Part shown: positions 44-20,103 of the stretch, in pieces
Layout: the number at the start of each line of letters is the position of its first letter
How positions within the stretch are numbered: the first letter of the stretch is position 1
NCBI GenBank assembly: GCA_965220845.1
Contig: CBDCRA010000005.1
Span: forward strand, 16 to 64,015
Direction of reading: 5' to 3'
DNA from: Candidatus Multivorans sp.
GTDB taxonomy: Bacteria; Acidobacteriota; Thermoanaerobaculia; Multivoradales; Multivoraceae
DNA: 64,000 bases
Notes under the pieces: generated by a model
Database searches by the model: none
What the model was told of the DNA's origin: nothing
Seen by the model: only the letters and a program-made list of their open reading frames with translations
Made by a program: the position numbers and the translations under genes

Positions 44-1864
44 ATGAGAACTAGAGACCGGGTCGCCACTGGGTGCGCCGGCGCCCCCGCCGGCTGCCGC
101 CGCAGGCGGCCAGAGGAACGCGCCGGCCGCAAGGCCGGCATCCGCTTTGTCCTCCTCACCCTCGTCGCGATCGTCTCCCAGCCCGCCGTTGCCCAGTTCC
201 AGGCCGGCGAACCGGCGCCGTCGCGCAACGACCCGGCCGACACGATCCTCGACGGCGGCCAGGTCTACACGCCCGGCGGCTGGGCGGAGTCGATCGCGAT
301 TCGCGACGGCGTCATCGTCGCGGTCGGCGACAGCGCCTCCGTCGCCGCGTTCCGCACCGACTCGACGGACGTGATCGACCTGGCGGGCCGGACCGTCTTC
401 CCCGGCTTCCACGACGTCCACGTCCATCCGCTGATCGCCGGCATGCAGGAGTTCTCCTGCCGCCTGCCTCCGGGGGCGACGCCGGACATCATCGCGGAGT
501 CGGTCGGCGACTGCGCCTCCCGGGCCGAGCCGGGAGAGTGGATCAACGGCGGCAACTGGGTGGCGGCGGTGTTCGAGCCTGGCCAGCAGACCAGGCAGTT
601 CCTGGACGCGGTGGCGCCGGACAACCCGGTCTTCCTGTACGACGAGTCCCACCACAGCGTCTGGGTCAACACGAAGGCCCTGGAAGTCGCCGGCATCGAC
701 CGCGACACGCCGGATCCGGAGGGCGGCATCATCGAGCGCGGCCCGGACGGCAAGCCGAACGGCCTGCTGCGCGAGACGGCCAACGCCATGGTGGCGTCCG
801 TGATCCCTCCCGCCTCGGACGCGCGGAAGATGGAGGGCATGAAGATCGCGACCGACGAGATGCTGGCCCACGGCATTACCTCGTTCACGGTGGCCTACGC
901 GAACTCCTGGCAACTCGGCGCGCTGGCTCGACTGGCGCGCGAGGGCACGTTGAAGCAGCGGGTGCGGGCCTGCGTCGCCTGGGGGCACGACCCGGCCCAG
1001 GCCTATGCCGCCGAGTCCCAGCTCGCGATCCGGGCGACCTACGAGAGTGTGCGCCTGAAGGTCGACTGCGTGAAGATCATGCTGGACGGGGTGCCGACGG
1101 AGAGCCACACCGCGTCGATGCTCGCGCCCTACGAGGACACGACCGGTGCGGACGATCCGCGGCCGAAGCTCGGGCTGCTCCTGGTTCCGCAGGAAGCGCT
1201 GAACGATGCCGTGACGGCCTTCGACCGCCAGGGTCTGCACGTGAAGATGCACGCCGCCGGCGACGGCGCGGTGCGGGCCGCGATCGACGCGGTCGCGGCC
1301 GCCCGGGAACGGAACGGCTTCGGCGGCCCGATGCACGATGTCGCCCACAGCACCTTCGCCGACCCGGCCGACATTCCCAGGCCGCGCGAGCTCGGCATGG
1401 CGTGGGAGTTCTCGCCCTACATCTGGTTCCCCACGCCGATGGCCGCGATCGACATCCGCAAGGCCGTCGGCGACGAGCGGATGAAGCGCTGGGTGCCGAT
1501 CCGGGACGCCCTCGAAACCGGCGCCCTGGTCGCGGCCGGCTCGGACTGGCCGGTCGTGCCCCTGGTCGACCCGTGGCTCGCGGTTGAGACGATGGTGACC
1601 CGCCAGGTCCCCGGCGGCAGCGAGGAAACCCTCGGCCTCCAGGAGCAGGTGACGCTGGAGGACGCGCTGCGCATCCTGACCTGGAACGGTGCCCGCCTGA
1701 TGGGCCAGGGCGACAAGGTCGGCACGATCGAGGTCGGCAAGGAGGCGGACCTCGTCGTCACGTCGCAGAACCCGTTCGATGTCGAGCCGACGGCGGTCCA
1801 CCGGACGAAGGTGGAGATGACGTTCATCGCGGGTGAGAGGGTGTACGCGGCCGGTGCGAACTAG
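44..1864 (+). CDS. Amidohydrolase-family metal-dependent hydrolase (amidohydrolase_3-like), secreted
   Basis: 606-aa ORF. HxH metal-binding motif (HDVHVHPL) and GSDWPV near the C-terminus. The hydrophobic signal-like segment (FVLLTLVAIVSQPAVAQ) follows an Arg-rich leader that is encoded by a REP-like repeat at 66-145. Confidence 0.75.
   Translation: MRTRDRVATGCAGAPAGCRRRRPEERAGRKAGIRFVLLTLVAIVSQPAVAQFQAGEPAPSRNDPADTILDGGQVYTPGGWAESIAIRDGVIVAVGDSASVAAFRTDSTDVIDLAGRTVFPGFHDVHVHPLIAGMQEFSCRLPPGATPDIIAESVGDCASRAEPGEWINGGNWVAAVFEPGQQTRQFLDAVAPDNPVFLYDESHHSVWVNTKALEVAGIDRDTPDPEGGIIERGPDGKPNGLLRETANAMVASVIPPASDARKMEGMKIATDEMLAHGITSFTVAYANSWQLGALARLAREGTLKQRVRACVAWGHDPAQAYAAESQLAIRATYESVRLKVDCVKIMLDGVPTESHTASMLAPYEDTTGADDPRPKLGLLLVPQEALNDAVTAFDRQGLHVKMHAAGDGAVRAAIDAVAAARERNGFGGPMHDVAHSTFADPADIPRPRELGMAWEFSPYIWFPTPMAAIDIRKAVGDERMKRWVPIRDALETGALVAAGSDWPVVPLVDPWLAVETMVTRQVPGGSEETLGLQEQVTLEDALRILTWNGARLMGQGDKVGTIEVGKEADLVVTSQNPFDVEPTAVHRTKVEMTFIAGERVYAAGAN
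66..145 (+). repeat. REP-like repeat type A (about 80 nt; CACTGGGTGCGCCGGCGCCCCCGCCGGCTGCCGCC...CGCGCCGGCCGCAAGGC)
   Basis: Near-identical copy at 35789-35865. Related half-copies at 31181-31255. Contains a GCCGGC palindrome (hairpin potential). Confidence 0.8.
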
Positions 1865-1973: not shown

Positions 1974-3419
1974 TTGGTCCGCCTCCGGCGGAAGCGGGTC
2001 AGAAGACCCGCGCACCCAGTGGGAAGCGTCCTGCTTCTGTTCCTTGCCGCCCCCGTCGCGGCCGCCGAACCGGACGCGCGCGCCCTGTACCGCCTCCACT
2101 GCGGCGGCTGCCACGGGCAGGCGCTCGAGGGCGGACTCGCGGAGCCGCTGATCAAGTCGGACTGGCGCTTCGGCCGGGACGGCTTCTCGGTCGAGAGCAA
2201 CATCCGCCACGGCATCCCGGGCACGGACATGCCGGGCTACCTCGGCGAGCTCTCGGACGAGGAGATGTCGGCCCTGGTCGAGCTGATCTACAGCCTGCAG
2301 ACGGAGCCGATCTGGATCGCCAGGCCGCTGCCGTCCGCGGTGGAGACCGAGCACTACACCCTGCGGGTCGAGTACCTGGCCACCGACGAACTGGAGAACC
2401 CCTGGGGCATCGAGTTCACCGGGCCGTCGGAGGGGCTGATCTCGGAGGACGCGGGCTACCTGCTTCGGTACCGGGACGGCAGGGTCGACCCGGAGCGGAT
2501 CACCGGACTGCCGCCGGTCGACCTCGCGACCTCGACCGGCGGGCTGATGGACATCGCGCTCGACCCGGACCACGCGGAGAACGGCTGGGTCTACGCGGCG
2601 ATCAGCCACTCGGAAGACCCGAACGACCGCTACGCCCCGGGGCTGACCCGGATCATCCGCGGCCGCGTCGACGGCAACCGCTGGCTGGACACGGAGTACC
2701 TGTTCCGGCTCGATCCCGGGTACCACCTGCCCGACAGCAAGCACTGGGGCGGCCGCCTGCTCTTCGACCGCGAAGGCCTCCTGTACTTCTCGATCGGCGA
2801 CATGAGCGCGGCGATGAACTCGCAGGACGCCGCCATGCCCTCGGGCAAGGTCTTCCGCATCCGCCCGGACGGCGGCATCCCGGAGGACAACCCCTTCGCC
2901 GGCGAGGACGGAGCGCTCGGCGCGGTGTTCACGCTCGGCAACCGGAACGTCCAGGGCATGGCCCAGCACCCGGAGACCGGCGCGATCTGGGCCGCCGAGC
3001 ACGGCCCGCGCGGCGGCGACGAGCTGAACCTCCTCGCTCCGGGCGGGAACTACGGCTGGCCGGTCGTCACGTTCGGCGTCAACTACGACGGCTCGGTGAT
3101 CAGCGACCGGACGCACGCCGACGGCATCGTGCCGCCCGTCGTCGAGTGGACGCCGGGGCTCGCCGTCGGCCCGATCGAGTTCGTGTCGAGCCCCGGCTTC
3201 GAGCAGTGGCGAGGCGACCTGCTGGTCGGGTCGCTCTCCTTCGAGGAACTCCGCCGCCTGGAGATCGACGGCGGCCGCGTCACCCGCCAGGAGCTTCTGT
3301 TCAAGGGCCACGGCCGCATCCGCGACATCAAGACCGGCCCGGACGGCGCGCTCTACCTGCTGCTCAACAACCCCGGCGCCCTGGTACGGCTGACGACCGT
3401 AGGATCGGCGGCCAGATGA
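1974..3419 (+). CDS. Cytochrome c domain fused to a PQQ-dependent soluble sugar (glucose/sorbosone) dehydrogenase-like beta-propeller
   Basis: CGGCHG heme-binding motif (LYRLHCGGCHGQ) followed by SGDH/YliI-like propeller motifs (GLLYFSIGD, NYGWP). The ORF track starts at 1833. The probable start is TTG 1974 (MVRLRRKRVRRPAHPVGSVLLLFLAAPVAAA, a good signal peptide) or GTG 2019. Confidence 0.75.
   Translation: MVRLRRKRVRRPAHPVGSVLLLFLAAPVAAAEPDARALYRLHCGGCHGQALEGGLAEPLIKSDWRFGRDGFSVESNIRHGIPGTDMPGYLGELSDEEMSALVELIYSLQTEPIWIARPLPSAVETEHYTLRVEYLATDELENPWGIEFTGPSEGLISEDAGYLLRYRDGRVDPERITGLPPVDLATSTGGLMDIALDPDHAENGWVYAAISHSEDPNDRYAPGLTRIIRGRVDGNRWLDTEYLFRLDPGYHLPDSKHWGGRLLFDREGLLYFSIGDMSAAMNSQDAAMPSGKVFRIRPDGGIPEDNPFAGEDGALGAVFTLGNRNVQGMAQHPETGAIWAAEHGPRGGDELNLLAPGGNYGWPVVTFGVNYDGSVISDRTHADGIVPPVVEWTPGLAVGPIEFVSSPGFEQWRGDLLVGSLSFEELRRLEIDGGRVTRQELLFKGHGRIRDIKTGPDGALYLLLNNPGALVRLTTVGSAAR
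1994..2019 (-). repeat. REP-like repeat type B, inverted copy
   Basis: GCGGGTCAGAAGACCCGCGCACCCAG is the reverse complement of the 1886-1911 unit. The two copies are 80 nt apart and could form a long stem. Confidence 0.8.
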
Positions 3420-4858
3420 CCAACGATCAAGGAACACTCCGCTCAGGCGCGCTCGGCCTCTGGGGCATCGTGTTCCTGGTCGTCGGCTCGGCGGCGCCGC
3501 TGACCTCGATGATGGGCGCGGTGCCGCCGCCGCTGTCGATCGGCAACGGCATCGGCGCGCCCGGCGCCTGGGTGCTGACCGGTCTCGTGCTGACCCTGTT
3601 CGCGGTCGGCTACGCGACGATGAGCCGGTTCGTGACGAACGCCGGCGCCTTCTACGCCTACATCGCGCGCGGCCTGGGGCGGCCGGCGGGCCTGGGCGGC
3701 GCGCTGGTCGCGGTCCTCTCGTACAACACGATCCAGTGCGCGCTGTGGGGGCTGTTCGGCTTCTTCTCCGTGAACATCCTGAACCCCAAGCTGGGCGTCG
3801 ACATCTCCTGGTACTGGTGGTCCTTCGCGCTGATGGCGATCACCGCGGTGCTCGGCTACTTCGGGATCGAGCTCTCGGCCAGGGTTCTGGGCGTGCTGCT
3901 GATCCTCGAGGTCCTGGTCCTCGTCGTGCTCGACGTCGCCATCGTGTTCACCGGCGGCGCGAGCGGCCTCCAGCTCAACTCCTTCAACCCGGCCGAGATC
4001 TTCTCGGGAGCACCGGGGGTGACCTTCGTCTTTGCCTTCGCTACCTTCGTCGGCTTCGAGGCGACCGCGATCTACGGCGAGGAGACCCGGGATCCGAAGC
4101 GCACCGTGCCGCGGGCGACCTACGTCGCGGTGGCGATCATCACCGTGTTCTACGCGCTGACCTCCTGGTCGATCGTCCAGGCCTACGGCGAGGACGAGGT
4201 CGTCGCCGCGGCGACCGGGAACCCGGACGGGCTGTTCCTGGACGCGAGCGCGAGCTACGTCCACCCGCTGTCGGCGAGCGTGATGGAGTGGCTGATCCTC
4301 ACCTCGATCTTCGCCGCGCTGCTCGCCTTCCACAACGCGGCCGCGCGCTACTTCTTCGCGATGGCCCGGGAGGGACTGCTGCCGCGCGCGATCGCCCGCA
4401 CCCACCCGCGCTACGGTTCGCCGTACCTCGCCGGCATCCTGCAGGCCGGGGTCGCCTTCGTCATCACCCTGGTGTTCGTGCTTGCGGGCCTCGATCCGTA
4501 CGCCGGCCTGTTCGCCTGGCTGAGCGGCATCGCGGCGCTGGGGATCATCGGTCTGCAGTGCCTGACCTCGCTCTCCGTCATCGCGTTCTTCCGGCGGACG
4601 GGCCTGGACGCGCGGCCGTGGCAGACGAAGGTGGCGCCGGGCCTGGGCGCGCTCGGCCTGGCGGCGGCGATGGTCTTCGTCGTCGTCAACTGGGACGCGC
4701 TGACCGGGGCGAGCACCGGCCTGGTCGGCTCGCTGTGGGCCGCGGTGCCGTTGTTCTTCCTCGCCGGCATCGCCTGGGCCGCCGCCATCCGCCGGCGCGA
4801 CGCCGAGGCCTACGAACGCCTGGGCCACTTCATCGACGAATCAACGGACGCGGCCTAG
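3416..4858 (+). CDS. APC-family amino acid/amine permease
   Basis: 480 aa from ATG 3416 (MTNDQGTLRSGALGLWGIVFLVVGSAAPL). About 12 predicted TM segments, typical APC architecture. The 3146 start in the track is an out-of-frame overlap with the upstream gene. Confidence 0.8.
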   Translation: MTNDQGTLRSGALGLWGIVFLVVGSAAPLTSMMGAVPPPLSIGNGIGAPGAWVLTGLVLTLFAVGYATMSRFVTNAGAFYAYIARGLGRPAGLGGALVAVLSYNTIQCALWGLFGFFSVNILNPKLGVDISWYWWSFALMAITAVLGYFGIELSARVLGVLLILEVLVLVVLDVAIVFTGGASGLQLNSFNPAEIFSGAPGVTFVFAFATFVGFEATAIYGEETRDPKRTVPRATYVAVAIITVFYALTSWSIVQAYGEDEVVAAATGNPDGLFLDASASYVHPLSASVMEWLILTSIFAALLAFHNAAARYFFAMAREGLLPRAIARTHPRYGSPYLAGILQAGVAFVITLVFVLAGLDPYAGLFAWLSGIAALGIIGLQCLTSLSVIAFFRRTGLDARPWQTKVAPGLGALGLAAAMVFVVVNWDALTGASTGLVGSLWAAVPLFFLAGIAWAAAIRRRDAEAYERLGHFIDESTDAA

Positions 4859-4886
4859 GGAGCCGCGACGTCAACAGGGGTCGAAC

Positions 4887-6203
4887 ATGAGCGACATCGA
4901 ACGGCTGACGGAGCAGGGCGCCAGGACGCTGCGGGTGATGTATCCCGATCTCCACGGGATCGCCCGCGGCAAGGACCTGGTGCTTGCCGACGCCGGCCAC
5001 GAGATCGAGGACGGCGTCGCCTTCTGCTCGGCGATCATGACGACGGACCTCGCCCATACGCCGGTGATGGGCGGCGAGATCGGCTACCCGGACTTCTTCG
5101 CCCGGCCCGACCTCTCGACCGCCGCGGTGCTGCCCTGGGCGCCGGACATCGCGGCCTGCCTGGTCGACCTGGTCGACGAGGAGGGCAATCCCCATCCGTT
5201 CGACCCGCGCGGCGCGGTGCGCCGGGCCGCGGACGGTCTGGCCGAACTCGGCCTGGCGCCGATCGTGGGCCCGGAGCTCGAGTTCTTCCTGTTCAAACCG
5301 GACGACGGCGCGCCGGAAGGCGCCGTCCGCTACGTCGACACGCTGTCGCGGGTCTACACCGTCGGCGCCGAGAGCGACCCGGGCGGCATCTCCGGCCGGA
5401 TGCTCCACGCCTGCGCCGGAATGGGTCTGGGCGCCTACGCCGCGAACCACGAGTTCATGAACTCGCAGTACGAGATCAACCTGCGCCACGGCCCCGCCCT
5501 GGACGCCGCCGACCGCGGGTTCCGGCTCAAGGCGACGGTCAAGGAAATGGCGGTGCTGGAGGAGATGCGCGCCACCTTCATGGGCCGGCCCTTCAACGAC
5601 CAGGGCGGCTCGGGACTCCACCTCCACGTGTCGCTTCAGGACGGCGACGGCGCCAACCGGATCGGCGATCCGGCGGGACCGAACGGCCTGAGCGCCGCCG
5701 CGCTCTCCTTCATCGCCGGAGTGCTGGAGCACGCCGGGGCGCTGATGGCTTTTCTCAATCCGACGGTCAACGCGTTCAAGCGGATCGCCCCCGACTCGCT
5801 GGCGCCGATCAACGTGTCCTGGGGGCTCGACAACCGGACGACCTTCGTCCGCGTGCCGCCCGAGCGCGGCAAGGCCGCCCGCCTGGAGATCCGCGTCGGC
5901 GACGGGACGGCGAACTGCCACCTGGCGATCGCCGCCCTGCTTCAGGCCGGCCTCGACGGCGTGCGCCGGAAGCTCGAAGCGCCCGAGCCGACCGCGGGCG
6001 ACGCCTACCGGCGGGAGGATCTTCCGCCGCTGCCGGGTTCCCTCGATCAGGCCCTCGACGCGCTGGAGGCCGACGAAACGCTGTGCGACGGCGTGGGCCG
6101 CGAGATCGTCGACGCCTTCCTGACTCTCAAGCGCTTCGAGCTCGAGCGTTACCACGGTTGGGTGACCGACTGGGAGCGCAACGAGTACCGGATTCAGTTG
6201 TAG
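4887..6203 (+). CDS. Glutamine synthetase-like gamma-glutamyl-amine ligase (GlnA3/PuuA/IpuC-like)
   Basis: 438 aa. GS catalytic-domain motifs (GSGLHLHVSL, NAFKRIAPDS, VRVPPERG..RLEIRVGD). Lacks the GlnA adenylylation loop. Confidence 0.8.
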   Translation: MSDIERLTEQGARTLRVMYPDLHGIARGKDLVLADAGHEIEDGVAFCSAIMTTDLAHTPVMGGEIGYPDFFARPDLSTAAVLPWAPDIAACLVDLVDEEGNPHPFDPRGAVRRAADGLAELGLAPIVGPELEFFLFKPDDGAPEGAVRYVDTLSRVYTVGAESDPGGISGRMLHACAGMGLGAYAANHEFMNSQYEINLRHGPALDAADRGFRLKATVKEMAVLEEMRATFMGRPFNDQGGSGLHLHVSLQDGDGANRIGDPAGPNGLSAAALSFIAGVLEHAGALMAFLNPTVNAFKRIAPDSLAPINVSWGLDNRTTFVRVPPERGKAARLEIRVGDGTANCHLAIAALLQAGLDGVRRKLEAPEPTAGDAYRREDLPPLPGSLDQALDALEADETLCDGVGREIVDAFLTLKRFELERYHGWVTDWERNEYRIQL

Positions 6204-6217
6204 GAGTCGGCGGGCCC

Positions 6218-7468
6218 GTGGCGCACGCAGCCAACCTCCCTGCCGTGGCCGGGATCGACCTCTGCGATCACGACCGGTTCGCGCGGGGCGTGCCGCACGA
6301 GTGGTTCGCGCGGCTGCGGGCGGAGGCGCCGGTGTACTGGCAGCCGGAGCCGAAGGGCCCGGGCTTCTGGTCCATCACGCGGCACGAGGACGTCGTCCGC
6401 GTCTCGAAGGATCCCAAGCGGTTCTCGTCCGAAGTCGGCGGCACGTCGCTCGAGGACCTGGAGCCGGAGCACGTCGAGGCGCGCAAGTCGATGATCGACA
6501 TGGACCCGCCGCGCCACTACAAGCTGCGCGCCCTGATCAACAAGCGCTTCCTGCCGCGGGCGCTGAAGGCCTTCTCGGGCCACATTCGGCAACTGTTCCG
6601 GGGCATTCTCGAGTCGGCGATCGCCCGGGGCGACTTCGACTTCGTCGACGACGTGGCGGTCGAGCTGCCGATGCGGGTGTTCGCCGAGATGCTGGGCGCG
6701 CCCCAGGAGGACCGGCGGCTCATCGTCGACATCGGCAACCGGATCCTCGGCGCGACCGACCCGGAGTACGTCGACGACTACGAGACGGAGCGGGAGCGCT
6801 TCAAGCACCTGCCGTTCTCGAGCCCGGCCAGCCTGGAGATGTTCGAGTACGGGCGCAAGCTGGCGGCCGCGCGGCGCGCCGAACCGCGCGACGACATCGT
6901 GACCGACCTGGTGTTCGCGGAGGTCGACGGCGAGCCGCTGACGCCGCACGAGTTCGACCTGTACTTCCTGCTGCTGGCGGCGGCCGGCAACGAGACGACC
7001 CGCCACTCGCTGTCGGGCGGCATACACGAGCTGCTGCGCCACCCCGACCAGGCGGAGCGCGTCGTCGCCGGCGACGAGGATCTGGCGACCACGGCCGCCG
7101 ACGAGATCCTGCGGATGGTGACGGCGGTTCACCACTTCCGGCGCACGGCGACCGAGGACGTCGAGATGCGCGGCGAGGTCATCCGCGCCGGCGACAAGGT
7201 CGCGATGTGGTACACGAGCGCCAACCGGGACGAGGACGTGTTCGAGGATCCCCACCGTTTCGATGTCGGCCGCAGGCCGAATCGGCACCTGACCTTCGGC
7301 ATCGGGCCGCACTTCTGCCTCGGCGCGTACCTGGCGAGGCTTGAGATCAGGATCGCGCTGGAGGAGCTGCGGCCGCATCTCGGTCGGCTCGAACTGGTCT
7401 CGGAGCCGGAGCGTCTGCGCTCGAACTTCTTCAACGGCATCAAGCACATGGGGGTTCGCCACCGGTGA
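6218..7468 (+). CDS. Cytochrome P450 monooxygenase
   Basis: Heme-thiolate signature FGIGPHFCLGAYLA, EXXR (ELLRH) and I-helix AGNETT. Probable GTG start at 6218, just after the GS-like stop. The track start at 6083 overlaps the upstream gene. Confidence 0.85.
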   Translation: MAHAANLPAVAGIDLCDHDRFARGVPHEWFARLRAEAPVYWQPEPKGPGFWSITRHEDVVRVSKDPKRFSSEVGGTSLEDLEPEHVEARKSMIDMDPPRHYKLRALINKRFLPRALKAFSGHIRQLFRGILESAIARGDFDFVDDVAVELPMRVFAEMLGAPQEDRRLIVDIGNRILGATDPEYVDDYETERERFKHLPFSSPASLEMFEYGRKLAAARRAEPRDDIVTDLVFAEVDGEPLTPHEFDLYFLLLAAAGNETTRHSLSGGIHELLRHPDQAERVVAGDEDLATTAADEILRMVTAVHHFRRTATEDVEMRGEVIRAGDKVAMWYTSANRDEDVFEDPHRFDVGRRPNRHLTFGIGPHFCLGAYLARLEIRIALEELRPHLGRLELVSEPERLRSNFFNGIKHMGVRHR

Positions 7469-8250
7469 GCGGAGGCGTTGCGGACAACCTGGGGCGCGGG
7501 CACAGGCCGCGGATCGGCGTCGTCGGCGACGTCCGGGACGCGATCATCGGTCCGTGGGACGAGGTCGTCTCGATGGTCCCGCACGACTACGTGTCGGCCA
7601 TTGCCGCCGCAGGCGGCGCGCCGGTCATCATCCCGAGCGTCGAGCCGTACGACGAGGACCCGGAGGCGGCGCTCGCGGGCCTCGACGGCATCGTCTTCAT
7701 GGGCGGCAAGGACTTCGATGCGAAGATCTATGGCGCGGAGCCGCACCCGGAGAATGACGAGCACGACGAGATGCGCGACCAGGTCGAGCTGGCGATCGGC
7801 CGCGCCGCGCTCAGGCGCCGGATGCCGATTCTGGGAATCTGCCGGGGCTTCCAGCTCCTGAACCTCCTCTACGGCGGCGACCTGGAACAGCACCTCGGCG
7901 ACCGGCTCGACATGAAGCCGCACCGCGACGTGCTGGGCGAGTTCACGCGGCACATGGTGACGATCGAGCCGGGGACGCACCTGGCGGCCGCGATGGAGGC
8001 GGGCGGCTCGCGTCTGCAGGCGGGGGACGTCGAGATCGCATCGCACCACCACCAGGGCGCCGGCCGGCTGGGGGAGGGCCTGCGGGTGGCCGCCACCGCG
8101 CCGGACGGCGTGATCGAGGCGCTCGAGGATCCCCGGCTTCCGTTCTGTCTCGGCGTGCAGTGGCACCCCGAGGTCACCGCGCCGGAAGACGGCGGCCGCC
8201 TGTTCCGCGCCCTCGTCGACTTCTGCTCATCCCATCCATCAACGGCCTGA
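7465..8250 (+). CDS. Class I glutamine-amidotransferase-like gamma-glutamyl hydrolase (peptidase C26, PuuD/IpuF-like)
   Basis: GICRGFQLLN nucleophile-elbow Cys and HHHQG His. Overlaps the P450 stop by 4 nt (GTGA), indicating translational coupling. Confidence 0.8.
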   Translation: MSGGVADNLGRGHRPRIGVVGDVRDAIIGPWDEVVSMVPHDYVSAIAAAGGAPVIIPSVEPYDEDPEAALAGLDGIVFMGGKDFDAKIYGAEPHPENDEHDEMRDQVELAIGRAALRRRMPILGICRGFQLLNLLYGGDLEQHLGDRLDMKPHRDVLGEFTRHMVTIEPGTHLAAAMEAGGSRLQAGDVEIASHHHQGAGRLGEGLRVAATAPDGVIEALEDPRLPFCLGVQWHPEVTAPEDGGRLFRALVDFCSSHPSTA

Positions 8251-8263
8251 GGATTCAGCGCAC

Positions 8264-9067
8264 ATGCCACTCAAGGGCTACAGCGGCCCGCTCTCCGCCA
8301 GCGGACGCGGCGGTCTCGTGCCGGCGCCGCCCTGGCACTACTCCTGCGACTTCCTGATCGTCGAGTACAGCACCGATCCGGACGCCATCACGGCCCTGCT
8401 GCCGGCGGAGCTCGAACCGGCCGAGCGGCCGGACATGGCCTGCGTCATCTTCGCCGACTGGCAGTCCTGCTCCGACGACCTGCACGAGCTGGAGGACCCG
8501 ATCCAGTCCCAGTACAAGGAGTGCTTCATCGTCGTCGGCGCGACGTGGCGCGGCGAGCCGGTGTCGCGCTGCGTCTACATCTGGGTCGACAAGGACTTCG
8601 CGATGTTCCGCGGCTGGGTGCAGGGCTTCCCGAAGAAGCTCGGCTCGATCCACATGACCCGCAGCTTCGAGGTCGGCAAGGCGGCGTGCAGGCTCGCTCC
8701 CGGCACCCGCTTCGGAGCGACCTGCACCGCCAACGACCGGCAGATCGTCCGTGCCGTCGTCGAACTCGAGGGGATCAGCGAAACCGGACCGACGGTGAAC
8801 GCTCCGCCCATGTTCAACACGCGCCACTTCCCCGCCGCGGCCGGGCTCGAACCCACGGTGTTCGAGATGGTCCGGGCCGGCGGCTACGACCGGGACTCGA
8901 CCGAGATCTGGGAGGGGCCGGCCAGGCTCGCCTTCGGCGGCGACACGCTGGAGGACCTGCAGGCGATCGCGCCGCGCGAGGTGCACCGCGGTTTCCGGTT
9001 CTCCTTCGCCTATAGCGTCGACGGCGTGGAGGTCGTCGGCCCGCACGACCGGGAGCAACTGCGATGA
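8264..9067 (+). CDS. Acetoacetate-decarboxylase (ADC)-family protein
   Basis: 267 aa. The N-terminal PWHYSCDFL motif and overall pattern resemble ADC-superfamily enzymes. Confidence 0.5.
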   Translation: MPLKGYSGPLSASGRGGLVPAPPWHYSCDFLIVEYSTDPDAITALLPAELEPAERPDMACVIFADWQSCSDDLHELEDPIQSQYKECFIVVGATWRGEPVSRCVYIWVDKDFAMFRGWVQGFPKKLGSIHMTRSFEVGKAACRLAPGTRFGATCTANDRQIVRAVVELEGISETGPTVNAPPMFNTRHFPAAAGLEPTVFEMVRAGGYDRDSTEIWEGPARLAFGGDTLEDLQAIAPREVHRGFRFSFAYSVDGVEVVGPHDREQLR

Positions 9068-9855
9068 GACACGAGCGCCGCGCCGGCGACGGCGCCTGGC
9101 TGCCTCCGATCGATCCGCCGTCGAAGATCATCGGCGTCCACCTGAGCTACCGCTCGCGCTGCGTGGAGTACGAGATGGAGCGCATCCCGGAGGTGCCGTC
9201 CTACTTCATGAAGCCGACTTCCTCGCTGAGCGCCCACGAGGCGCCCGTGGCGCGGCCGCGCGGCTGCCGCTTCCTGAACTACGAGGGGGAGATCGCGGTC
9301 GTCATCGGCCGGCGGGCGACCGGCGTGCCGATCGACGAGGCGCTCGACTACGTGCGCGGCTACACGCTGGTCAACGACTTCGGCATCCACGACTTCCGGC
9401 ACGCCGACCGCGGCTCGATGCTGCGGGTCAAGGGCCAGGACGGCTTCGGGCCGATGGGGCCGGCCCTGGTCGATGCCGGCGATGTCGACCCGAACGACCT
9501 GACGCTGCGCACGCTGGTCAACGGCGAGGTGGTGCAGCAGGGGAACACCGGCGAGGACCTCCTGTTCTCGTTCGCCTACCAGATCGCCGACCTGAGCCGG
9601 CTGATCACGCTTGAACCCGGCGACGTCATCATGACCGGCACGCCGGCGAACTCGCGGCCGGTCGGGCCGGGCGACGTGGTCGAGGTGCATTGCGACGAGA
9701 TCGGCACGCTGCGCAACCCGATCGTCGAGCTGGACCGGGACCTGCAGCCGGTCGGCGAGCAGCCCGAGGTGACCGGCAACACGTTGCATGTCGCGCTCTG
9801 CGTGCCGGAGGACGAGGCCGAGGTGATGGCGGCGGCGGAGGCGGCGGGTTCGTGA
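9064..9855 (+). CDS. Fumarylacetoacetate hydrolase (FAH)-family hydratase/decarboxylase (HpaG/2-keto-4-pentenoate hydratase-like)
   Basis: 263 aa. YEGEIAVVIGR and MTGTPA motifs of the FAH fold. 4-nt overlap with the upstream gene. Confidence 0.75.
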   Translation: MRHERRAGDGAWLPPIDPPSKIIGVHLSYRSRCVEYEMERIPEVPSYFMKPTSSLSAHEAPVARPRGCRFLNYEGEIAVVIGRRATGVPIDEALDYVRGYTLVNDFGIHDFRHADRGSMLRVKGQDGFGPMGPALVDAGDVDPNDLTLRTLVNGEVVQQGNTGEDLLFSFAYQIADLSRLITLEPGDVIMTGTPANSRPVGPGDVVEVHCDEIGTLRNPIVELDRDLQPVGEQPEVTGNTLHVALCVPEDEAEVMAAAEAAGS

Positions 9856-11348
9856 CGGCGGGAGGTCGAGAGGCGCGCGTCAACGTCGAAGGCGTCGCCG
9901 TACCGACCGGCCACCTGATCGGCGGCCGCCGTGTCGGTGGAGGCGGCGGTTTCGAGGTCCGTTCGCCGATCGACTGGGACTGGAAGCTGGCCGAGTTGCC
10001 CGAGGCGGGGGCGTCGGAAGTCGACGCCGCCGTCGCGGCGGCGCGCGGCGCCTTCCCGGACTGGGCGGCGCTGGGACCGGAGGGCCGGGCGCCGTACCTG
10101 CTGCGCCTTGCCGCGGAGGTCGAACGGAGAGCCGCCGAGATCGCCCAGGTCGAGACGATCGACAACGGTTCCCTGCTGGAGGCGATGAGGGAGCGGGTGA
10201 TCCCGCGCGGCGGGATGAACTTCCGTTTCTTCGCCGAGTACGCGGTGTCGCGCCTGGCCGAGCCGGCCCGCACGCTGCACGGCGGCGAGCGGAACACGGT
10301 CCGGCACGATCCGGCCGGTGTCGTCGCCGTGTCGACGCCCTGGAACGCGCCCTTCATGCTGGCGACCTGGCGGGTCGGGCCGGCGCTCGCGGCCGGCGAC
10401 ACGGTCGTCCTCAAGCCGCCGGAGTGGGCGCCGCTGACCTGCTCGCTGCTCGGCGACCTGGCCGAGGAGGCCGGGTTGCCGCCGGGGGTGCTGAACATCG
10501 TCCACGGCGGGCCGGAGACGGGGGCTCTCCTGATCGGCCACGCCGGCGTCGACCGGATCGCCTTCACCGGCTCGCCGGCGACCGCGCGCACGGTGGGGGC
10601 CGCCGCGGCGGCGGAGCTCACTCCCGTCTCCTTCGAACTCGGCGGCAAGTCGCCGTTTCTCGTCTTCGCCGACGCCGACCTGGAGGCCGCCGCGCGCACC
10701 GCCGCGTACCAGTACGACAACTCGGGTCAGGTCTGTCTGGCCGGAACCAGGCTGCTGATCGAGCGGAGCTGCCTCGAGGCCTTCATGGAGCGGTTCCTGG
10801 CGGAAGTCGAGGCGATCCGCGTCGGCGACCCGCGGGAAGCCGCGACGACCTACGGCCCGCTGATCCATCCTCGCGCGCTGGCGCGCGTCGAAAGCCACGT
10901 CGAGAAGGCGCTCGCCCAGGGGGCGGCGCTCCGTTTCGGCGGCAAGAGCAGCGGCGGGCTCTACTACCCGCCGACCCTGTTCGCCGACGTGCCGCCCGGT
11001 GCCGACGTTCTCCGCGAGGAGGTGTTCGGGCCGGTGCTCACCCTTCAGACGTTCGATGGCGACGAAGAGGCGGTCGCCCTGTCCGAGTCGACCGACTACG
11101 GGCTCGCCGCGATGATCTTCACCGGCGACGAGGCTCGTGCCGACCGTCTCTCGCGGCGGATCAGCGCCGGCACGATCTGGGTCAACTGCTTCTACGTCCG
11201 CGACCTGGAGACCCCCTTCGGCGGCACGAAGCACTCCGGCATCGGCCGCGAGGGCGGCCGCCACTCGTTCGACTTCTACTGCGACGTGAAGACGGTCTGC
11301 CAACGGACCTCCGCGTTCGCGGCCACCGCAACAGGAGACAGCCCGTGA
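9852..11348 (+). CDS. NAD(P)-dependent aldehyde dehydrogenase (hydroxymuconic-semialdehyde-type)
   Basis: ALDH motifs: FTGSPATARTV, ELGGKSP, catalytic Cys in VCLAGTR. GTG start at 9852 overlaps the FAH stop. The track start at 9690 is an out-of-frame overlap. Confidence 0.85.
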   Translation: MTAGGREARVNVEGVAVPTGHLIGGRRVGGGGGFEVRSPIDWDWKLAELPEAGASEVDAAVAAARGAFPDWAALGPEGRAPYLLRLAAEVERRAAEIAQVETIDNGSLLEAMRERVIPRGGMNFRFFAEYAVSRLAEPARTLHGGERNTVRHDPAGVVAVSTPWNAPFMLATWRVGPALAAGDTVVLKPPEWAPLTCSLLGDLAEEAGLPPGVLNIVHGGPETGALLIGHAGVDRIAFTGSPATARTVGAAAAAELTPVSFELGGKSPFLVFADADLEAAARTAAYQYDNSGQVCLAGTRLLIERSCLEAFMERFLAEVEAIRVGDPREAATTYGPLIHPRALARVESHVEKALAQGAALRFGGKSSGGLYYPPTLFADVPPGADVLREEVFGPVLTLQTFDGDEEAVALSESTDYGLAAMIFTGDEARADRLSRRISAGTIWVNCFYVRDLETPFGGTKHSGIGREGGRHSFDFYCDVKTVCQRTSAFAATATGDSP

Positions 11349-12256
11349 TCGGCGGCATCCACCACGCAGGCCTCACCGTCACCGACTTCGCCGAGGCCTC
11401 GGCCCGCTGGCAGCGCCTGCTCGGCCTCAGCCTGGCCACGGATGACGGCGCGCTGCTCCGCTGCGCCTACGAGGACTTCTGCGTCCGCCTCTCCGCCGGC
11501 GACCGCGGTTGCGTCGACTACATCGCCTACGAACTCGAACCCGGCGTGACCCTGGCCCAGGCCGGCGACCGGCTGTCCGACGCCGGAACGCTCGCCGTAC
11601 CGATCGAACTCCCGTCCGGCCGTTTCGGGCTGCGCACCGCCGACCCGGACGGCAACGGCGTGGTCGTCGTCGAGCACACAGCACCGGACGACCCGCGGCC
11701 CGACGTCTGCAAACAGTCGGACACCCTGCCCGGCTTCCATCCGCGGCGGCTCCAGCACGTGAACTACCTCACCGCCGACACGCCGCGCGCCGTCAAGTGG
11801 TACGTCGAGGCGCTCGGCCTCAAGATCACCGACTGGATCGGCGACGACGCCTGCTGGCTCCACGCCGACCGCGACCATCACGTGCTCGCCTTCCTCGACA
11901 AGGGCTACGCCCACATCCACCACGTCGCCTTCGAGCTGGCCGACTGGGGCGAGATGCGGGTCGGCCTCGACCACCTCGCGGCCCACCGGCGGCCGATCGT
12001 CTGGGGTCCGGGCCGCCACGGCATGGCCCAGAACCTGTTCGCCTACTGGCGGATGCCCGAGGAGGGCACCTTCATCGAGTTCTTCGCCGACATGGAAGTC
12101 CTCGGCCCGAACCACCAGGTCCGCCACTTCCCCGACGACGCCTTCGCCTCGAACACCTGGGGCCAACTGCCCCCGCGGTCCTACTTCCGCTTCGACGAAG
12201 AAGCGATCCGCGCCGAGTGGGACCAGTCCCAGCAACTGGGCGCCCAACTCTCCTGA
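11345..12256 (+). CDS. Type I extradiol ring-cleavage dioxygenase (VOC superfamily; catechol/homoprotocatechuate 2,3-dioxygenase-like)
   Basis: 303 aa from GTG 11345 (MIGGIHHAGLTV...). Two VOC modules. Metal-ligand His in HHVAFEL. Overlaps the ALDH stop. The track start at 10424 is an artefact. Confidence 0.8.
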   Translation: MIGGIHHAGLTVTDFAEASARWQRLLGLSLATDDGALLRCAYEDFCVRLSAGDRGCVDYIAYELEPGVTLAQAGDRLSDAGTLAVPIELPSGRFGLRTADPDGNGVVVVEHTAPDDPRPDVCKQSDTLPGFHPRRLQHVNYLTADTPRAVKWYVEALGLKITDWIGDDACWLHADRDHHVLAFLDKGYAHIHHVAFELADWGEMRVGLDHLAAHRRPIVWGPGRHGMAQNLFAYWRMPEEGTFIEFFADMEVLGPNHQVRHFPDDAFASNTWGQLPPRSYFRFDEEAIRAEWDQSQQLGAQLS

Positions 12257-12504
12257 CAGCTCCCGGACGACTGGTAGCGGCCGTGGTCAGGCGGTGGCCT
12301 GAGATGTGCCGAAGATGGCCTTCGGCGGGATGTGCGAAAGATCGGCAGGTAAGCAACGATTTACGCCAAGATCGTCACTTCACATGGAGATTTACGCCCT
12401 GGCCCCAGGAGTGCTGGCCGTGCCGGCCGGCTGGTTGTTCTCCCCTCCGGGATGAGCCGCCGTTGCGGCCGCCGCGACGCTGAGCGCGAGGCGGGTGCGC
12501 GGGC

Positions 12505-13185
12505 TCATCGAGACTGCCTCGAAAGTTCGCGTTCGGTAGCGCGGGAAACCGGTCCTTCGAGCATGGCCGCCATCGCGTCGAGCAGCGTCTCGAAGAACAG
12601 CTCGGCGTCGGCGCCGTCGAAGGCGCCGCCTGAGAGCGCCCGTTGGGCGAGGGCCAGCGCCGCCATCCGGTGCATCAGGTCGAAGCGCCGGTCCGCCAGC
12701 GCCTTGGGGATGCCAAGCTGCGCGCGGATGCGCTTCGCCACCTCGCCCACTCCGGCGCCCGTGTAGCGGGTCGCGCCCTCGCGGAGCTCCTCGCCGGGCA
12801 GGAAGACGAGCTGCCCGACCACCTTGAGGAAAAGCGCGAACTCCGGATCCCGCCGGGCGATCCGCACGGGAGGCATGACCGCCACCTCGCAGAGGCGGCG
12901 CACGTCCTGCACTTCGCCGGCGTCATCCAGCTCGTGGAGCATGCGCTCCCGCTCTTCCCCGATCTGTGCGCCGCGCTTGACGTACATGGCGTCGATGAGC
13001 CCCTCGCGGCCGCCGAAGTGGTACTGGAGGGCGGACTCGTTGCGCTGGCCCGCTTCGCGCAGGATGGCGCGAGTGGAGGTCGGGCCGACGCCCTGCTCGG
13101 CGAAGAGTCTCTCGGCGGCTCGAAGCAGCTTCTCCCGCGTTGTCTCGCCGGCCGTCACCGTCGCCGCGCGTGCACCGCCGCTCAT
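12505..13185 (-). CDS. TetR-family transcriptional regulator
   Basis: N-terminal HTH (TREKLLRAAERLFAEQGVGPTSTRAILREAG). 226 aa. Convergent with the catabolic block and divergent from the sulfatase gene. Confidence 0.85.
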   Translation of the reverse strand: MSGGARAATVTAGETTREKLLRAAERLFAEQGVGPTSTRAILREAGQRNESALQYHFGGREGLIDAMYVKRGAQIGEERERMLHELDDAGEVQDVRRLCEVAVMPPVRIARRDPEFALFLKVVGQLVFLPGEELREGATRYTGAGVGEVAKRIRAQLGIPKALADRRFDLMHRMAALALAQRALSGGAFDGADAELFFETLLDAMAAMLEGPVSRATERELSRQSR

Positions 13186-15863: not shown

Positions 15864-17491
15864 CCCGAGAAGTAGACCATCACGGCGGCGACGATCAGCA
15901 CCAGGACGACCGACAGCGTCCGGTCCAGCCGGCGCTTCGCCGGGTCGGATTCGGCCAGGAGGTCGGCGTTGCCGGCCCGGCTCCAGGTCAGGCCGGCGAC
16001 GCGCTGCTCGGAGGGCGGCGGGAACCAGAGGCTGACGGCCACCAGCACGGCGGCGCAGATCAGGAACAGGAAGATCGCGACGTGCATGAAGTTGATGTCG
16101 GCGAAGGTGTAGAGGAAGCCGCTCAGGCTCTCCTTGTTCAGCTCCGCGACGAGCCGGCCCATTCCCAGGACGAAGCCGACGGCGAGTGACGCGATCGCGC
16201 CCTGGGCGTTGAGGCGCTTCCAGAACAGCCCCAGCAGGAACACCGCGGTGACCGGCGGGGAAATGTACCCCTGGACGCTCTGGAGGTACTGGTAGAGCGT
16301 GCCGGAGATGTTCTGCATCAGCGGGATCCAGAGCAGGCCCAGGCCCACCAGGCCGATCGTCGCCGTCTGCCCGACGAGGACCAGGCGTCGCTCCGAGACG
16401 CCGGGGTGGAGCTTCTTGTAGATGTCGATCGTGATCAGCGTCGAGCAGGAGTTGAAGACGGAGGAGAGGCTGCTCATCAGCGCCGCCAGCAGTCCCGCGA
16501 CGACGAGTCCGCGGAAGCCCGCCGGCAGAAGCGCCACGACGAGGGCCGGCAGCGCCTGGTCGGAGGAGGCGAGTTCGAGCTTCCCGGACTCGGCCAGGCA
16601 GTAGGCGATCACGCCGGGCACGACGAACAGGAAGAGCGGCAACTGCTTGAGGAAGCCGGCGAAGATCGTGCCGCGCCGGGCGTCGTCGATGCCTCGGGCT
16701 GACAGAGCTCGCTGGACGATGAATTGGTCGGTGCACCAGTACCAGACCGCGATGATCGGCGCGCCGAAGGCGATGCCGGTCCACGGGAAGTCCGGGTCGG
16801 ACATCGGCTTCCACATGTCGAAGAAGCCTGGACCGGCGGTTTCGACCATGACCCGCCAGCCGCCGAGTTCGGCGAGGCCGAGGATCGTCACCGTGGAAGC
16901 GCCGACGATCAGGACGATGGCCTGCAGCAGGTCGGTGTAGACGACGGCGCGGAGACCGCCGAGCACTGTGTAGACGCCCGTGATCACGACGACCACCAGG
17001 GCGCCCGTCCAGAAGTTGATGCCCATCAGGGTCTCGAAGACGACGCCGCCGGCGTAGATCGTCACCGAGATCTTGGTCAGGACGTAGCCGATGACCGAGA
17101 TCACCGAGAGGTACCAGCGGGCCGCGGGCGAGTAGCGCCGCTCGAGGAACTCGGGCATCGTGAAGATGCCGCTCTTGACGTAGAACGGCACGAACAGCCA
17201 GCCGAGGATGAGCAGGATCAGCGAGGCCTGGAGCTCGAACTGGCCGAGAACGAGGCCGCTCTGGGCGCCGGTGCCGGCCAGGCCGACGAGGTGCTCCGAG
17301 CCGATGTTCGAGGCGAAGAGGGAAGCGCCGACGACGAACCAGCCGACGTTGCGGCCGGCGAGGAAGTAGCTCGACGAGGTGCGTTCGCCGTGCCGGACCC
17401 GCCGGATGGCCCAGAGCGCGATGGCGAAGACGCCGGCGAAGTAGAGGGCGACGACGGTCCAGTCGAGGGTCGTGATCTTCGCCGTCAGCAT
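15860..17491 (-). CDS. Sodium:solute symporter (SSS family)
   Basis: 543 aa, about 13-14 TM segments. N-terminal SSF signature (YFLAGR..G, GASLFASNIGSEHLVGLAG). Confidence 0.85.
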   Translation of the reverse strand: MLTAKITTLDWTVVALYFAGVFAIALWAIRRVRHGERTSSSYFLAGRNVGWFVVGASLFASNIGSEHLVGLAGTGAQSGLVLGQFELQASLILLILGWLFVPFYVKSGIFTMPEFLERRYSPAARWYLSVISVIGYVLTKISVTIYAGGVVFETLMGINFWTGALVVVVITGVYTVLGGLRAVVYTDLLQAIVLIVGASTVTILGLAELGGWRVMVETAGPGFFDMWKPMSDPDFPWTGIAFGAPIIAVWYWCTDQFIVQRALSARGIDDARRGTIFAGFLKQLPLFLFVVPGVIAYCLAESGKLELASSDQALPALVVALLPAGFRGLVVAGLLAALMSSLSSVFNSCSTLITIDIYKKLHPGVSERRLVLVGQTATIGLVGLGLLWIPLMQNISGTLYQYLQSVQGYISPPVTAVFLLGLFWKRLNAQGAIASLAVGFVLGMGRLVAELNKESLSGFLYTFADINFMHVAIFLFLICAAVLVAVSLWFPPPSEQRVAGLTWSRAGNADLLAESDPAKRRLDRTLSVVLVLIVAAVMVYFSG

Positions 17492-17507
17492 GGCGTGTCC
17501 TCCTCGC

Positions 17508-20069: not shown

Positions 20070-20103
20070 GTTCGGCTGCTCTGCGTTGGGGGTGAAGTTG
20101 TTC

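Follow-up and report, generated by a model that had tools for sequence, protein, structure and literature searches.

The window analysed here is a 64,000-nucleotide stretch of contig CBDCRA010000005.1 (positions 16 to 64,015, forward strand) from the assembly GCA_965220845.1 of Candidatus Multivorans sp., with a G+C content of approximately 70%. At positions 3416-12256 it carries a block of eight co-directional genes in which a permease, a glutamine synthetase (GS)-like ligase, a cytochrome P450 and a class I glutamine amidotransferase (GATase) hydrolase are followed by four ring-cleavage enzymes (Table 1). The genes were called by third-position GC (GC3) frame analysis together with reading of the open reading frames (ORFs), and their families were assigned with Pfam and NCBIfam. 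All of the gene families named in a first-pass annotation of this DNA, made from the sequence alone, are borne out by these assignments; its count of nine genes is reached only if the convergent TetR gene is added to the eight. The block is a real, intact operon that is common to sponge-type Acidobacteria and soil Actinobacteria, and it may well serve the breakdown of a tyrosine-derived arylethylamine, likeliest tyramine, with dopamine-type catechols as intermediates and gamma-glutamylation as the nitrogen-protecting handle.

Table 1. Genes and features of the operon region, with positions in the window
Feature	Position	Strand	Evidence
Amidohydro_3-family amidohydrolase, signal-peptide-like N-terminus	44-1864	+	Pfam PF07969, 1.6e-93
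Cytochrome c-pyrroloquinoline quinone (PQQ) glucose/sorbosone dehydrogenase, exported	2019-3419 (start uncertain, 1974-2019)	+	PF07995, 7.9e-99, plus Cytochrome_CBB3; CGGCH motif
APC-family permease	3416-4858	+	AA_permease PF00324, 2.8e-29
GS-like ATP-dependent gamma-glutamyl-amine ligase (predicted)	4887-6203	+	Gln-synt_C, 1.1e-95
Class I cytochrome P450 monooxygenase	6218-7468	+	PF00067, 4.2e-25
Peptidase_C26 / class I GATase gamma-glutamyl-amide hydrolase, PuuD-like	7465-8250	+	PF07722, 3.4e-57
Acetoacetate decarboxylase (ADC)-superfamily enzyme, MppR/Sbi00515 branch	8264-9067	+	PF06314, 5.1e-53
Single-domain fumarylacetoacetate hydrolase (FAH)-family enzyme, HpaG-like	9064-9855	+	FAA_hydrolase PF01557, 1.4e-60
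NAD(P)-dependent aldehyde dehydrogenase (ALDH), ring-fission semialdehyde type, HpaE-like	9852-11348	+	Aldedh PF00171, 2.6e-142
Two-domain VOC (type I) Fe(II)/Mn(II) extradiol catechol dioxygenase	11345-12256	+	Glyoxalase/VOC; best NCBIfam model HpaD
Terminator-like GC hairpin followed by a T-rich tail, 3' of the last gene	12413-12431	+	Consensus scan; weak evidence
Convergent TetR-family regulator	12505-13185	-	PF00440, 6.1e-10

Start and stop codons overlap by 4 nt at the P450/hydrolase, ADC/FAH, FAH/ALDH and ALDH/dioxygenase junctions, and gaps of 28 nt, 14 nt and 13 nt separate the permease from the GS-like gene, the GS-like gene from the P450 gene, and the hydrolase gene (stop at 8250) from the ADC gene (start at 8264), respectively. 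The 4-nt overlaps described in the first-pass annotation are thus present within the block, but the claim that such an overlap fuses the two modules does not hold, their boundary being the 13-nt gap. The co-directional run continues upstream of 3416, where the stop codon of the dehydrogenase gene (3419) overlaps the permease start by 4 nt. The Amidohydro_3 gene lies upstream of the operon in 11 of 13 acidobacterial relatives and in none of the actinobacterial loci; together with the cytochrome c-PQQ dehydrogenase, it forms a pair of exported-type enzymes that precedes the operon in the acidobacterial lineage only. In relatives (for example, locus L006, 5638-8529), an Amidohydro_1 domain of approximately 1.4 kb is fused to the C-terminus of the dehydrogenase; the window copy lacks it, the junction of the loss lying near 3391-3427. 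The two exported enzymes might free the amine from an extracellular conjugate. The TetR gene, which had been put forward as the likely regulator, is not a conserved partner of the operon: it is missing at the same position in the closest relatives (L004, L005, L013 and L014), and in other relatives 0.4-2.3 kb of unrelated genes intervene. With so unstable a linkage, a role as the conserved regulator is unsupported. The regulators found in the actinobacterial clusters are of the GntR, LysR, MarR or TetR type.

The GS-like protein falls below the cut-off of the GlnA model (TIGR00653, 281.8 versus 429.15 bits), and the same applies to the PuuA model (252.7 bits, cut-off 650) and the type III/GmaS-like model (296.3 bits, cut-off 469.6). 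Its sequence identity to E. coli GlnA is 32% and that to PuuA is 30%, and the range is 28-32% when two roseobacter P450-linked ligases are considered together with PuuA and GlnA. Its active site residues were mapped by alignment with E. coli GlnA and with GS structures of the archaeal and Bacillus types. The ligands of the metals, ATP and glutamate are all kept (E130, E132, E189, E196, H245, H247, R299, R317, R322, E334 and R336). On the other hand, of the ammonium-site residues of GS (D50', S53', Y179 and the flap residue E327; S. typhimurium numbering), the three that bind and deprotonate ammonium are swapped (D50 to C47, S53 to I50 and E327 to L305), with Y179 alone being kept as Y157. None of these substitutions varies across 30 homologues or the Streptomyces members, and PuuA likewise lacks D50 and the flap E327. 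In addition, the F-C and PD(S/T)(L/T)AP motifs are kept in every cluster-linked homologue (30 homologues and the members from Streptomyces and Embleya), and the GS-like gene is linked to a gamma-glutamyl-amide hydrolase, the Peptidase_C26 gene lying two genes downstream in the window. A true glutamine synthetase is ruled out by the sub-cut-off GlnA score and the replaced ammonium-site residues, and the earlier view that the protein is not a bona fide GS stands, with D50, S53 and E327 lost and the ligase ligands retained. The refutation test set in the first-pass annotation thus favours a gamma-glutamyl-amine ligase, with a more hydrophobic pocket.

The permease is 21% identical to E. coli PuuP and is predicted to be the amine importer. 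The hydrolase, in which GICRG and QWHPE motifs are readable, is 33% identical to E. coli PuuD, and its best NCBIfam model is the hydrolase of gamma-glutamyl-4-aminobutyrate (gamma-Glu-GABA), at 103.9 bits versus a cut-off of 266. The translation of the P450 gene contains the FGIGPHFCLG haem loop, the AGNETT I-helix motif and EILR; its top matches in the Protein Data Bank (PDB) are CYP125MRCA, the reconstructed CYP125 ancestor (449 bits), and CYP125/124/126 (approximately 280 bits), and these nearest solved relatives tell little about the reaction. Triads of GS-like ligase, GATase and P450 genes are also found on a plasmid of Sagittula stellata E-37 (L091, 6923-10230) and on the megaplasmid of Ruegeria sp. 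TM1040 (L092, 8154-11680), where the triad directly adjoins the paaABCD phenylacetate genes. Their P450s are 40-42% identical to that of the window and their ligases only 28-32%, and they look like further members of a broader "glutamylate, then P450" family that handles other amines.

In the ring-cleavage half of the operon, the dioxygenase scores 100.3 bits against the HpaD model (cut-off 321.4). When it is aligned to the Brevibacterium homoprotocatechuate 2,3-dioxygenase (HPCD), the residues H155, H214 and E267 of the 2-His-1-carboxylate iron triad are kept, as are the catalytic H200 and Y257 and also N157, W192 and H248. R243 of HPCD, a contact of the substrate carboxylate, is replaced by Trp. 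The ALDH matches HpaE best among the NCBIfam models (464.7 bits, cut-off 638.35), followed by 2-hydroxymuconic semialdehyde dehydrogenase; it is 39% identical to PuuC, and its ELGGKSP and GQVCLAG motifs are readable. The top model of the FAH protein is the generic FAH-family PRK12764 (271 bits), with the HpaG C-terminal model second (209.7 bits, cut-off 276.4), and the protein is 57-73% identical to the cluster-linked actinobacterial homologues. Genes for HpaF, HpaH and HpaI are not found in the block, whose intergenic gaps do not exceed 28 nt, and the ADC-like enzyme takes their position. A small tautomerase hidden in the relatives was also considered and rejected, since the candidate ORFs of 52 and 87 amino acids are pieces of the FAH and GATase genes. 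Public annotations show such fragments beside the cluster at L084 9723-9986 (a C-terminal piece of the small GATase) and L002 14902-15060 (an N-terminal piece of FAH), and these are not additional genes.

The ADC-like protein matches Sbi00515 (PDB 4zbo) at 1.3e-54 over residues 3-261 and MppR (4jm3) at 2.2e-53. It keeps the RGWVQGFPKKLG motif, and K124 of its GFPKK motif, the Schiff-base lysine, aligns to the lysine at chain position 122 of 4zbo. Sbi00515 and MppR are pyruvate aldolase-dehydratases, not decarboxylases. The protein is below the MppR equivalog (TIGR04460, 214.5 bits versus a cut-off of 380), and neither of the MppR partners, MppP and MppQ, is present. The enzyme is predicted to be a hydratase/retro-aldolase that releases pyruvate. 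In S. solfataricus, the MppR-like ADC proteins Sso1221/1222 lie beside a catechol 2,3-dioxygenase, are strongly induced by phenol and have been proposed to act as an aldolase (PMC7820114). Catalytic residues were thus aligned for three of the enzymes, namely ligase, ADC-like protein and dioxygenase, and are intact in each.

The loci of the GS-like homologues were compared with the window proteins by tblastn, and the actinobacterial counts in this paragraph refer to 43 loci with full 10-kb flanks. The ligase is found at 91-99% identity in 13 acidobacterial genomes (Thermoanaerobaculia, 'Holophagales' and Ca. Multivorans), and the same operon is present in 11 of 11 full-length acidobacterial loci; the window DNA is approximately 97% identical to L004 and L016. 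The operon is polymorphic inside this lineage. The next relatives of the ligase are 55-63% identical and all belong to the Actinomycetota (Solirubrobacterales, Rubrobacterales and Conexibacter), with Solirubrobacter soli DSM 22325 (L032) and Conexibacter sp. CPCC 205762 (L058) as cultured carriers. The drop in identity from more than 90% to approximately 60% suggests transfer between the Actinomycetota and the acidobacterial lineage. Directly downstream of the GS-like gene, a P450 gene is found in 41 of the 43 actinobacterial loci; the dioxygenase and FAH genes are each present in 38, a pyridoxal 5'-phosphate (PLP) decarboxylase gene in 37, the ALDH gene in 34, the ADC-like gene in 32, the APC permease gene in 27, and the genes of ferredoxin and ferredoxin reductase in 26 and 25, respectively. 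P450, dioxygenase, FAH and ALDH genes occur together in 34 loci, in at least three gene orders. The usual order, FAH-ferredoxin-reductase-small GATase-GS-P450-dioxygenase-ADC-ALDH-(M20 peptidase)-permease, is unlike that of the window. A second, split arrangement is seen in L002, L024, L059, L061, L065, L077, L078, L082 and L085, and the FAH and dioxygenase proteins of this arrangement, together with the ADC-like protein in those loci that have one, are nearest to those of the window (58-73% identity). Chance adjacency of unrelated modules is ruled out by this conserved yet shuffled synteny; the constant gene content in shuffled order across two phyla is therefore strong evidence for one functional unit, and the connection drawn in the first-pass annotation between the ligase/P450/hydrolase unit and the ring-cleavage unit is supported.

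The hydrolase varies among the loci: in approximately 47 actinobacterial loci the gene immediately upstream of the ligase encodes a small class I GATase, the C26 hydrolase is found in 20 loci, and an M20 peptidase is present in 19. The predicted deglutamylating enzyme can be exchanged among Peptidase_C26, small class I GATase and M20 peptidase. The clustered decarboxylases are group II PLP enzymes. Among solved structures, the common type is nearest to the Ruminococcus tryptophan decarboxylase and to DOPA decarboxylase, and tyrosine decarboxylase models score best for a second type (L002b and pSLUN1). These clustered decarboxylases point to an amine of the tyrosine type.

Two other explanations were considered. 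The first is an aniline-type system similar to Tdn/Atd for an amine of the aniline/aminophenol class, with the P450 in the place of the Rieske dioxygenase and a product that enters a catechol meta-cleavage pathway. A GS-like ligase and a class I GATase hydrolase beside meta-cleavage genes are the hallmark of aniline clusters, and the hydrophobic ligase pocket would suit such a substrate. Nevertheless, we regard this explanation as very unlikely. No Rieske-type gene appears in the window block or in the clusters conserved across 80 loci, and gamma-glutamylanilide could not be deaminated to catechol by a monooxygenase. In addition, decarboxylases of the PLP amino-acid type are a conserved part of the cluster, and the dioxygenases, ALDH and FAH are Hpa-like rather than of the catechol set, with no 4-OT, XylJ or XylK-type set. 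The second explanation is biosynthetic, namely that a catecholamine is turned into a secondary metabolite or a building block that is gamma-glutamylated or ring-cleaved, by analogy with MppR and with the extradiol cleavage of L-DOPA in lincomycin and pyrrolobenzodiazepines. The ADC-like protein is indeed nearest to MppR/Sbi00515, and the copy of the set on the Streptomyces plasmid pSLUN1 (see below) lies approximately 10 kb from a nonribosomal peptide synthetase (NRPS) gene. However, no core biosynthetic enzyme is conserved alongside the set, which turns up in numerous genomic surroundings that have nothing else in common; it comes with permeases for uptake and with regulators of a catabolic type (GntR, LysR, MarR and TetR); and the ALDH, FAH and aldolase lead to pyruvate-type products. 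A biosynthetic role thus seems highly improbable.

The same gene set is also carried by the linear plasmids of S. canus NBC_00633 (L089) and S. lunaelactis (pSLUN1, L088) and by an Embleya replicon (L090). In these Streptomycetaceae versions, the dioxygenase is of the LigB type, with HpaD_Fe (TIGR02298) as its best model, and has no detectable similarity to the VOC enzyme of the window. Two unrelated dioxygenase folds thus resemble homoprotocatechuate 2,3-dioxygenase, the enzyme for a catechol whose side chain has two carbons, and this suggests that the catechol here is dopamine-like. The HpaE match of the ALDH and the HpaG match of the FAH enzyme likewise indicate a homoprotocatechuate-like catechol. 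Together with the aromatic-amino-acid-type decarboxylases clustered in 37 of the 43 actinobacterial loci, these two HpaD-like dioxygenase types support an arylalkyl amine, already suggested in the first-pass annotation, as the best substrate class. The number of P450 genes differs among the three replicons, being 0 in pSLUN1, 1 in Embleya and 2 in S. canus. The plasmid pSLUN1 encodes the ligase, permease, decarboxylase, hydrolase and the full ring-cleavage set, and contains neither a P450 gene nor a remnant of one within 12 kb. Glutamylation is therefore meaningful in pSLUN1 only if the amide lasts through ring cleavage. A second ALDH gene adjoins the PuuD-like hydrolase gene in pSLUN1 and Embleya, the pair being translationally coupled in pSLUN1; its products are 50.5% (pSLUN1) and 48% (Embleya) identical to E. 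coli PuuC, which is also the best model of the pSLUN1 copy (554 bits). On the S. canus plasmid, a PuuC-like ALDH (48%) is cut off by the edge of the fetched stretch, and the hydrolase is absent within that stretch. Conservation of this second PuuC-like ALDH in Solirubrobacterales was considered and rejected, as it is essentially confined to Streptomycetaceae and L028. The S. canus cluster additionally contains an F420-dependent LLM oxidoreductase.

A route for the breakdown of tyramine may be proposed. The amine would be imported by the APC permease in the window organism, or made from tyrosine by the clustered PLP decarboxylase in the Actinomycetota; as the acidobacterial version has no decarboxylase gene, import is presumably its source. 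The GS-like ligase would then convert tyramine, glutamate and ATP to gamma-glutamyl-tyramine, and the P450, served by a ferredoxin and a reductase encoded elsewhere, would hydroxylate the ring ortho to the phenol group to give gamma-glutamyl-dopamine. The conversion of tyramine to dopamine by a P450 is known for CYP2D6. Subsequently, the VOC dioxygenase would cleave the 4-substituted catechol in the extradiol manner of homoprotocatechuate 2,3-dioxygenase, the HpaE-like ALDH would oxidize the resulting semialdehyde, and the HpaG-like FAH enzyme would carry out tautomerization and decarboxylation. The ADC-like enzyme, acting as a combined HpaH/HpaI, would hydrate the 2-oxo-3-enoate and release pyruvate and gamma-glutamyl-4-aminobutanal by retro-aldol cleavage. 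When the carbon bookkeeping of the Hpa pathway is repeated with the carboxymethyl side chain replaced by a 2-(acylamino)ethyl group, the expected product is exactly the substrate of PuuC. Finally, an ALDH, either that of the window or another, would oxidize gamma-glutamyl-4-aminobutanal to gamma-glutamyl-GABA, from which the PuuD-like Peptidase_C26 would release GABA and regenerate glutamate. Keeping the amide to the end would stop the free amine from cyclizing onto a quinone or the ring-fission carbonyls.

The point at which the glutamyl group is removed is what separates this proposal from a route that follows the Ipu order, in which glutamylation, ring hydroxylation by the P450 and deglutamylation succeed one another and the free catecholamine then feeds the dioxygenase. 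In the Ipu route, the hydrolase reportedly acts directly after the P450. The gene content also fits this order, and in the window the hydrolase gene comes right after the P450 gene, the two overlapping by 4 nt. Conversion of the amine via N-glutamylated intermediates in the Ipu route is stated in the title of de Azevedo Waesch et al. 2002, cited in PMC1713258. On the other hand, glutamylation followed immediately by deglutamylation would be futile in pSLUN1, which has no P450, and in pSLUN1 and Embleya the hydrolase has a PuuC-like ALDH as its coupled partner. A free primary amine near a ring-fission aldehyde or ketone would also be expected to cyclize, as in the chemistry of betalamic acid and lincomycin precursors. 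The scheme "hydroxylate, then deglutamylate", which the first-pass annotation had taken over from Ipu, is for these reasons probably inapplicable here: the P450-less pSLUN1 and the coupling of a PuuC-like ALDH to a PuuD-like hydrolase speak against it, and we consider early deglutamylation improbable.

A different role for the P450 deserves more weight, although it too is on the unlikely side. In N-dealkylation, the P450 would hydroxylate the carbon beside the amide nitrogen of glutamylated dopamine or tyramine, and the resulting carbinolamide would collapse into an arylacetaldehyde and glutamine. The GATase/C26 protein would then be a glutaminase that forms glutamate and ammonia, an ALDH would produce (di)hydroxyphenylacetate, and genuine homoprotocatechuate would be degraded by the HpaD/E/G-like enzymes, with the ADC-like enzyme in place of HpaH/HpaI, to pyruvate and succinic semialdehyde. 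HpaD is the top model for both dioxygenase types, HpaE that for the ALDH, and HpaG a strong second for FAH; N-dealkylation accounts for these Hpa-like matches and for the ALDH/hydrolase pair as well as the preferred reading does. The coupling of ALDH and hydrolase genes in pSLUN1 and Embleya would be expected if both enzymes handled the products of the P450 step, the ALDH reaching approximately 470 bits as a phenylacetaldehyde dehydrogenase. One of the roseobacter triads of GS, GATase and P450 genes, that of Ruegeria TM1040, lies beside paaABCD, and alpha-hydroxylation of cyclic amines by a P450 is known in the degradation of morpholine and piperidine. However, tyramine would require a 4-hydroxyphenylacetate 3-hydroxylase by this route, and none is conserved in the clusters, so that N-dealkylation is complete for a catecholamine substrate only. 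Furthermore, the P450-less pSLUN1 could not remove the nitrogen in this way, the Hpa-like enzymes are well under their equivalog cut-offs, HPCD Arg243 is Trp here, and the M20 peptidase of 19 loci would be left without a role.

Several observations weigh against our preferred reading, retention of the glutamyl amide through the fission of a tyramine-derived ring. Neither a ferredoxin, a ferredoxin reductase nor a PLP decarboxylase is detectable by tblastn in the 64-kb window; the absence of P450 redox partners, pointed out for the block in the first-pass annotation, thus extends to the entire window, while the relatives encode these partners in the cluster. The block contains no tautomerase, and the window has a single ALDH. 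The assignments to the Hpa, Puu and GS types are all under the curated equivalog cut-offs. The closest solved P450s, the CYP125/124/126 clan, are aliphatic omega-hydroxylases and not phenol hydroxylases, and a Nonomuraea P450 with 46% identity sits outside any such cluster with no ligase nearby, which makes the P450 lineage unsafe as a marker of glutamyl-amide substrates. Within the acidobacterial lineage, the ADC-like gene is cleanly deleted in L005, L007, L012, L013 and L015 (five loci, four of them among the 11 full-length ones; corresponding to window 8252-9057) and the permease gene in L007, L012 and L015 (3 of 11; window 3460-4820); because of these losses, the operon may be partly dispensable or decaying. 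The second ALDH of the Streptomycetaceae also scores approximately 470 bits against phenylacetaldehyde dehydrogenase models, and a PuuC-like ALDH of this kind fits N-dealkylation as well. Finally, the phenylalanine-4-hydroxylase gene that adjoins the cluster in L085, in itself a pointer to a tyrosine-type amine, is found at this single locus only and is rejected as a general feature.

With both sides taken together, it is possible, if short of probable, that the gamma-glutamyl group is carried through P450 hydroxylation and the whole of extradiol fission into the Puu intermediates gamma-Glu-4-aminobutanal and gamma-Glu-GABA, and that Thermoanaerobaculia of the Ca. Multivoraceae group and Actinomycetota from soil, with the linear plasmids of Streptomyces among the latter, have exchanged the module. 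In this composite picture, the P450 number (0, 1 or 2) may reflect how hydroxylated the amine already is (dopamine, tyramine or phenethylamine).

In the literature searched, largely outside subscription journals, no description of gamma-glutamyl-tyramine or gamma-glutamyl-dopamine catabolism or of this gene set was found. Known routes of tyramine and dopamine breakdown begin with an amine oxidase or a transaminase and continue through the 4-hydroxyphenylacetate/homoprotocatechuate pathway. The parts of the proposed route are already familiar (glutamylation from Puu, Ipu and Tdn, meta-cleavage from Hpa, and aldolases of the Sbi00515 type); their combination would be new, above all the cleavage of the ring while the catecholamine is glutamyl-protected, with convergence on intermediates of Puu. 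If the proposal is correct, a broad range of bacteria retain the nitrogen, hidden in a gamma-glutamyl amide, during both aromatic hydroxylation and ring fission, and the gamma-glutamyl protecting-group principle of the Puu, Ipu and aniline pathways is extended to ring-cleavage chemistry. Functions would also be provided for a large unannotated GS-like subfamily, a P450 clade and the enigmatic MppR/Sbi00515 branch of the ADC superfamily, and a cross-phylum mobile catabolic module would be described. The pathway can be tested directly, since several of its carriers are in culture, namely Solirubrobacter soli DSM 22325, Conexibacter sp. CPCC 205762, S. lunaelactis MM109, S. canus NBC_00633 and Embleya sp. 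NBC_00896.

Elsewhere in the window, the stretch 57231-59729 encodes homogentisate 1,2-dioxygenase and a VOC protein that resembles 4-hydroxyphenylpyruvate dioxygenase, which indicates that the organism also has the canonical route of tyrosine degradation. Three sulfatase genes, one of them fused to a DJ-1/PfpI domain, are found in 13281-24823, 54154-55941 and 59693-61222; the sulfatase stretch also includes a GH3 glycosidase, a sodium:solute symporter, a TonB-dependent receptor with CarboxypepD_reg and a LacI regulator, and looks like a neighbourhood for the utilization of glycans or sulfated polymers. A TauD gene is located at 34795-35910. Between 38000 and 50000 the G+C content falls to 0.62-0.65, compared to approximately 0.70, and a type I restriction R subunit fused to a Peptidase_S24-like domain is encoded at 42718-45516; this region is possibly a mobile or defence island.

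A comparison with known systems places the operon between several established pathways. Similar to the aniline systems TdnQTA1A2B and AtdA1-A5, it has a GS-like ligase and a GATase hydrolase beside meta-cleavage genes, and the amine would be handled as a gamma-glutamyl amide; unlike them, it has a P450 instead of a Rieske oxygenase, the nitrogen would be retained at oxygenation, and a PLP decarboxylase is linked in the relatives. With Sbi00515 and MppR, the ADC-like enzyme shares near full-length PDB matches (E approximately 1e-54) and the GFPKK motif, and its association with a catechol dioxygenase is that of Sso1221/1222 (PMC7820114); it differs in that its predicted reaction is hydration and retro-aldol cleavage of a ring-fission product and in that it is dispensable in some relatives. 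The Hpa/Hpc pathway has in common with the operon an extradiol dioxygenase with the HPCD catalytic set, HpaE-like and HpaG-like enzymes, and pyruvate as the predicted end product, whereas in the window a single ADC-superfamily enzyme would cover the hydratase and aldolase steps, HPCD Arg243 is Trp, and a 2-(gamma-glutamylamino)ethyl group is predicted as the side chain in place of carboxymethyl. The Puu pathway of E. coli (PuuP, PuuA, PuuB, PuuC and PuuD) likewise consists of ATP-dependent gamma-glutamylation, oxidation of the protected amine and release of GABA and glutamate by a Peptidase_C26 enzyme; the operon has no PuuB oxidase (the E. coli query had no match in the Streptomyces loci, and a flavin amine oxidase is absent among the Pfam assignments of the block), and its gamma-Glu-4-aminobutanal is predicted to arise from catecholamine ring fission and not from putrescine. 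Finally, the Ipu route of Pseudomonas sp. KIE171 and the related piperidine systems also comprise a permease, a GS-like ligase, a class I P450 that acts on a gamma-glutamyl amide and a GATase-type hydrolase, with the glutamyl group as the handle during oxygenation, and in the window all four genes lie in one operon (3416-8250). In contrast to Ipu, the predicted substrate is an arylethylamine and not a small aliphatic amine, no ferredoxin or reductase gene is present in the window, and the unit is joined to a four-enzyme extradiol ring-cleavage module, with the hydrolase probably acting last.

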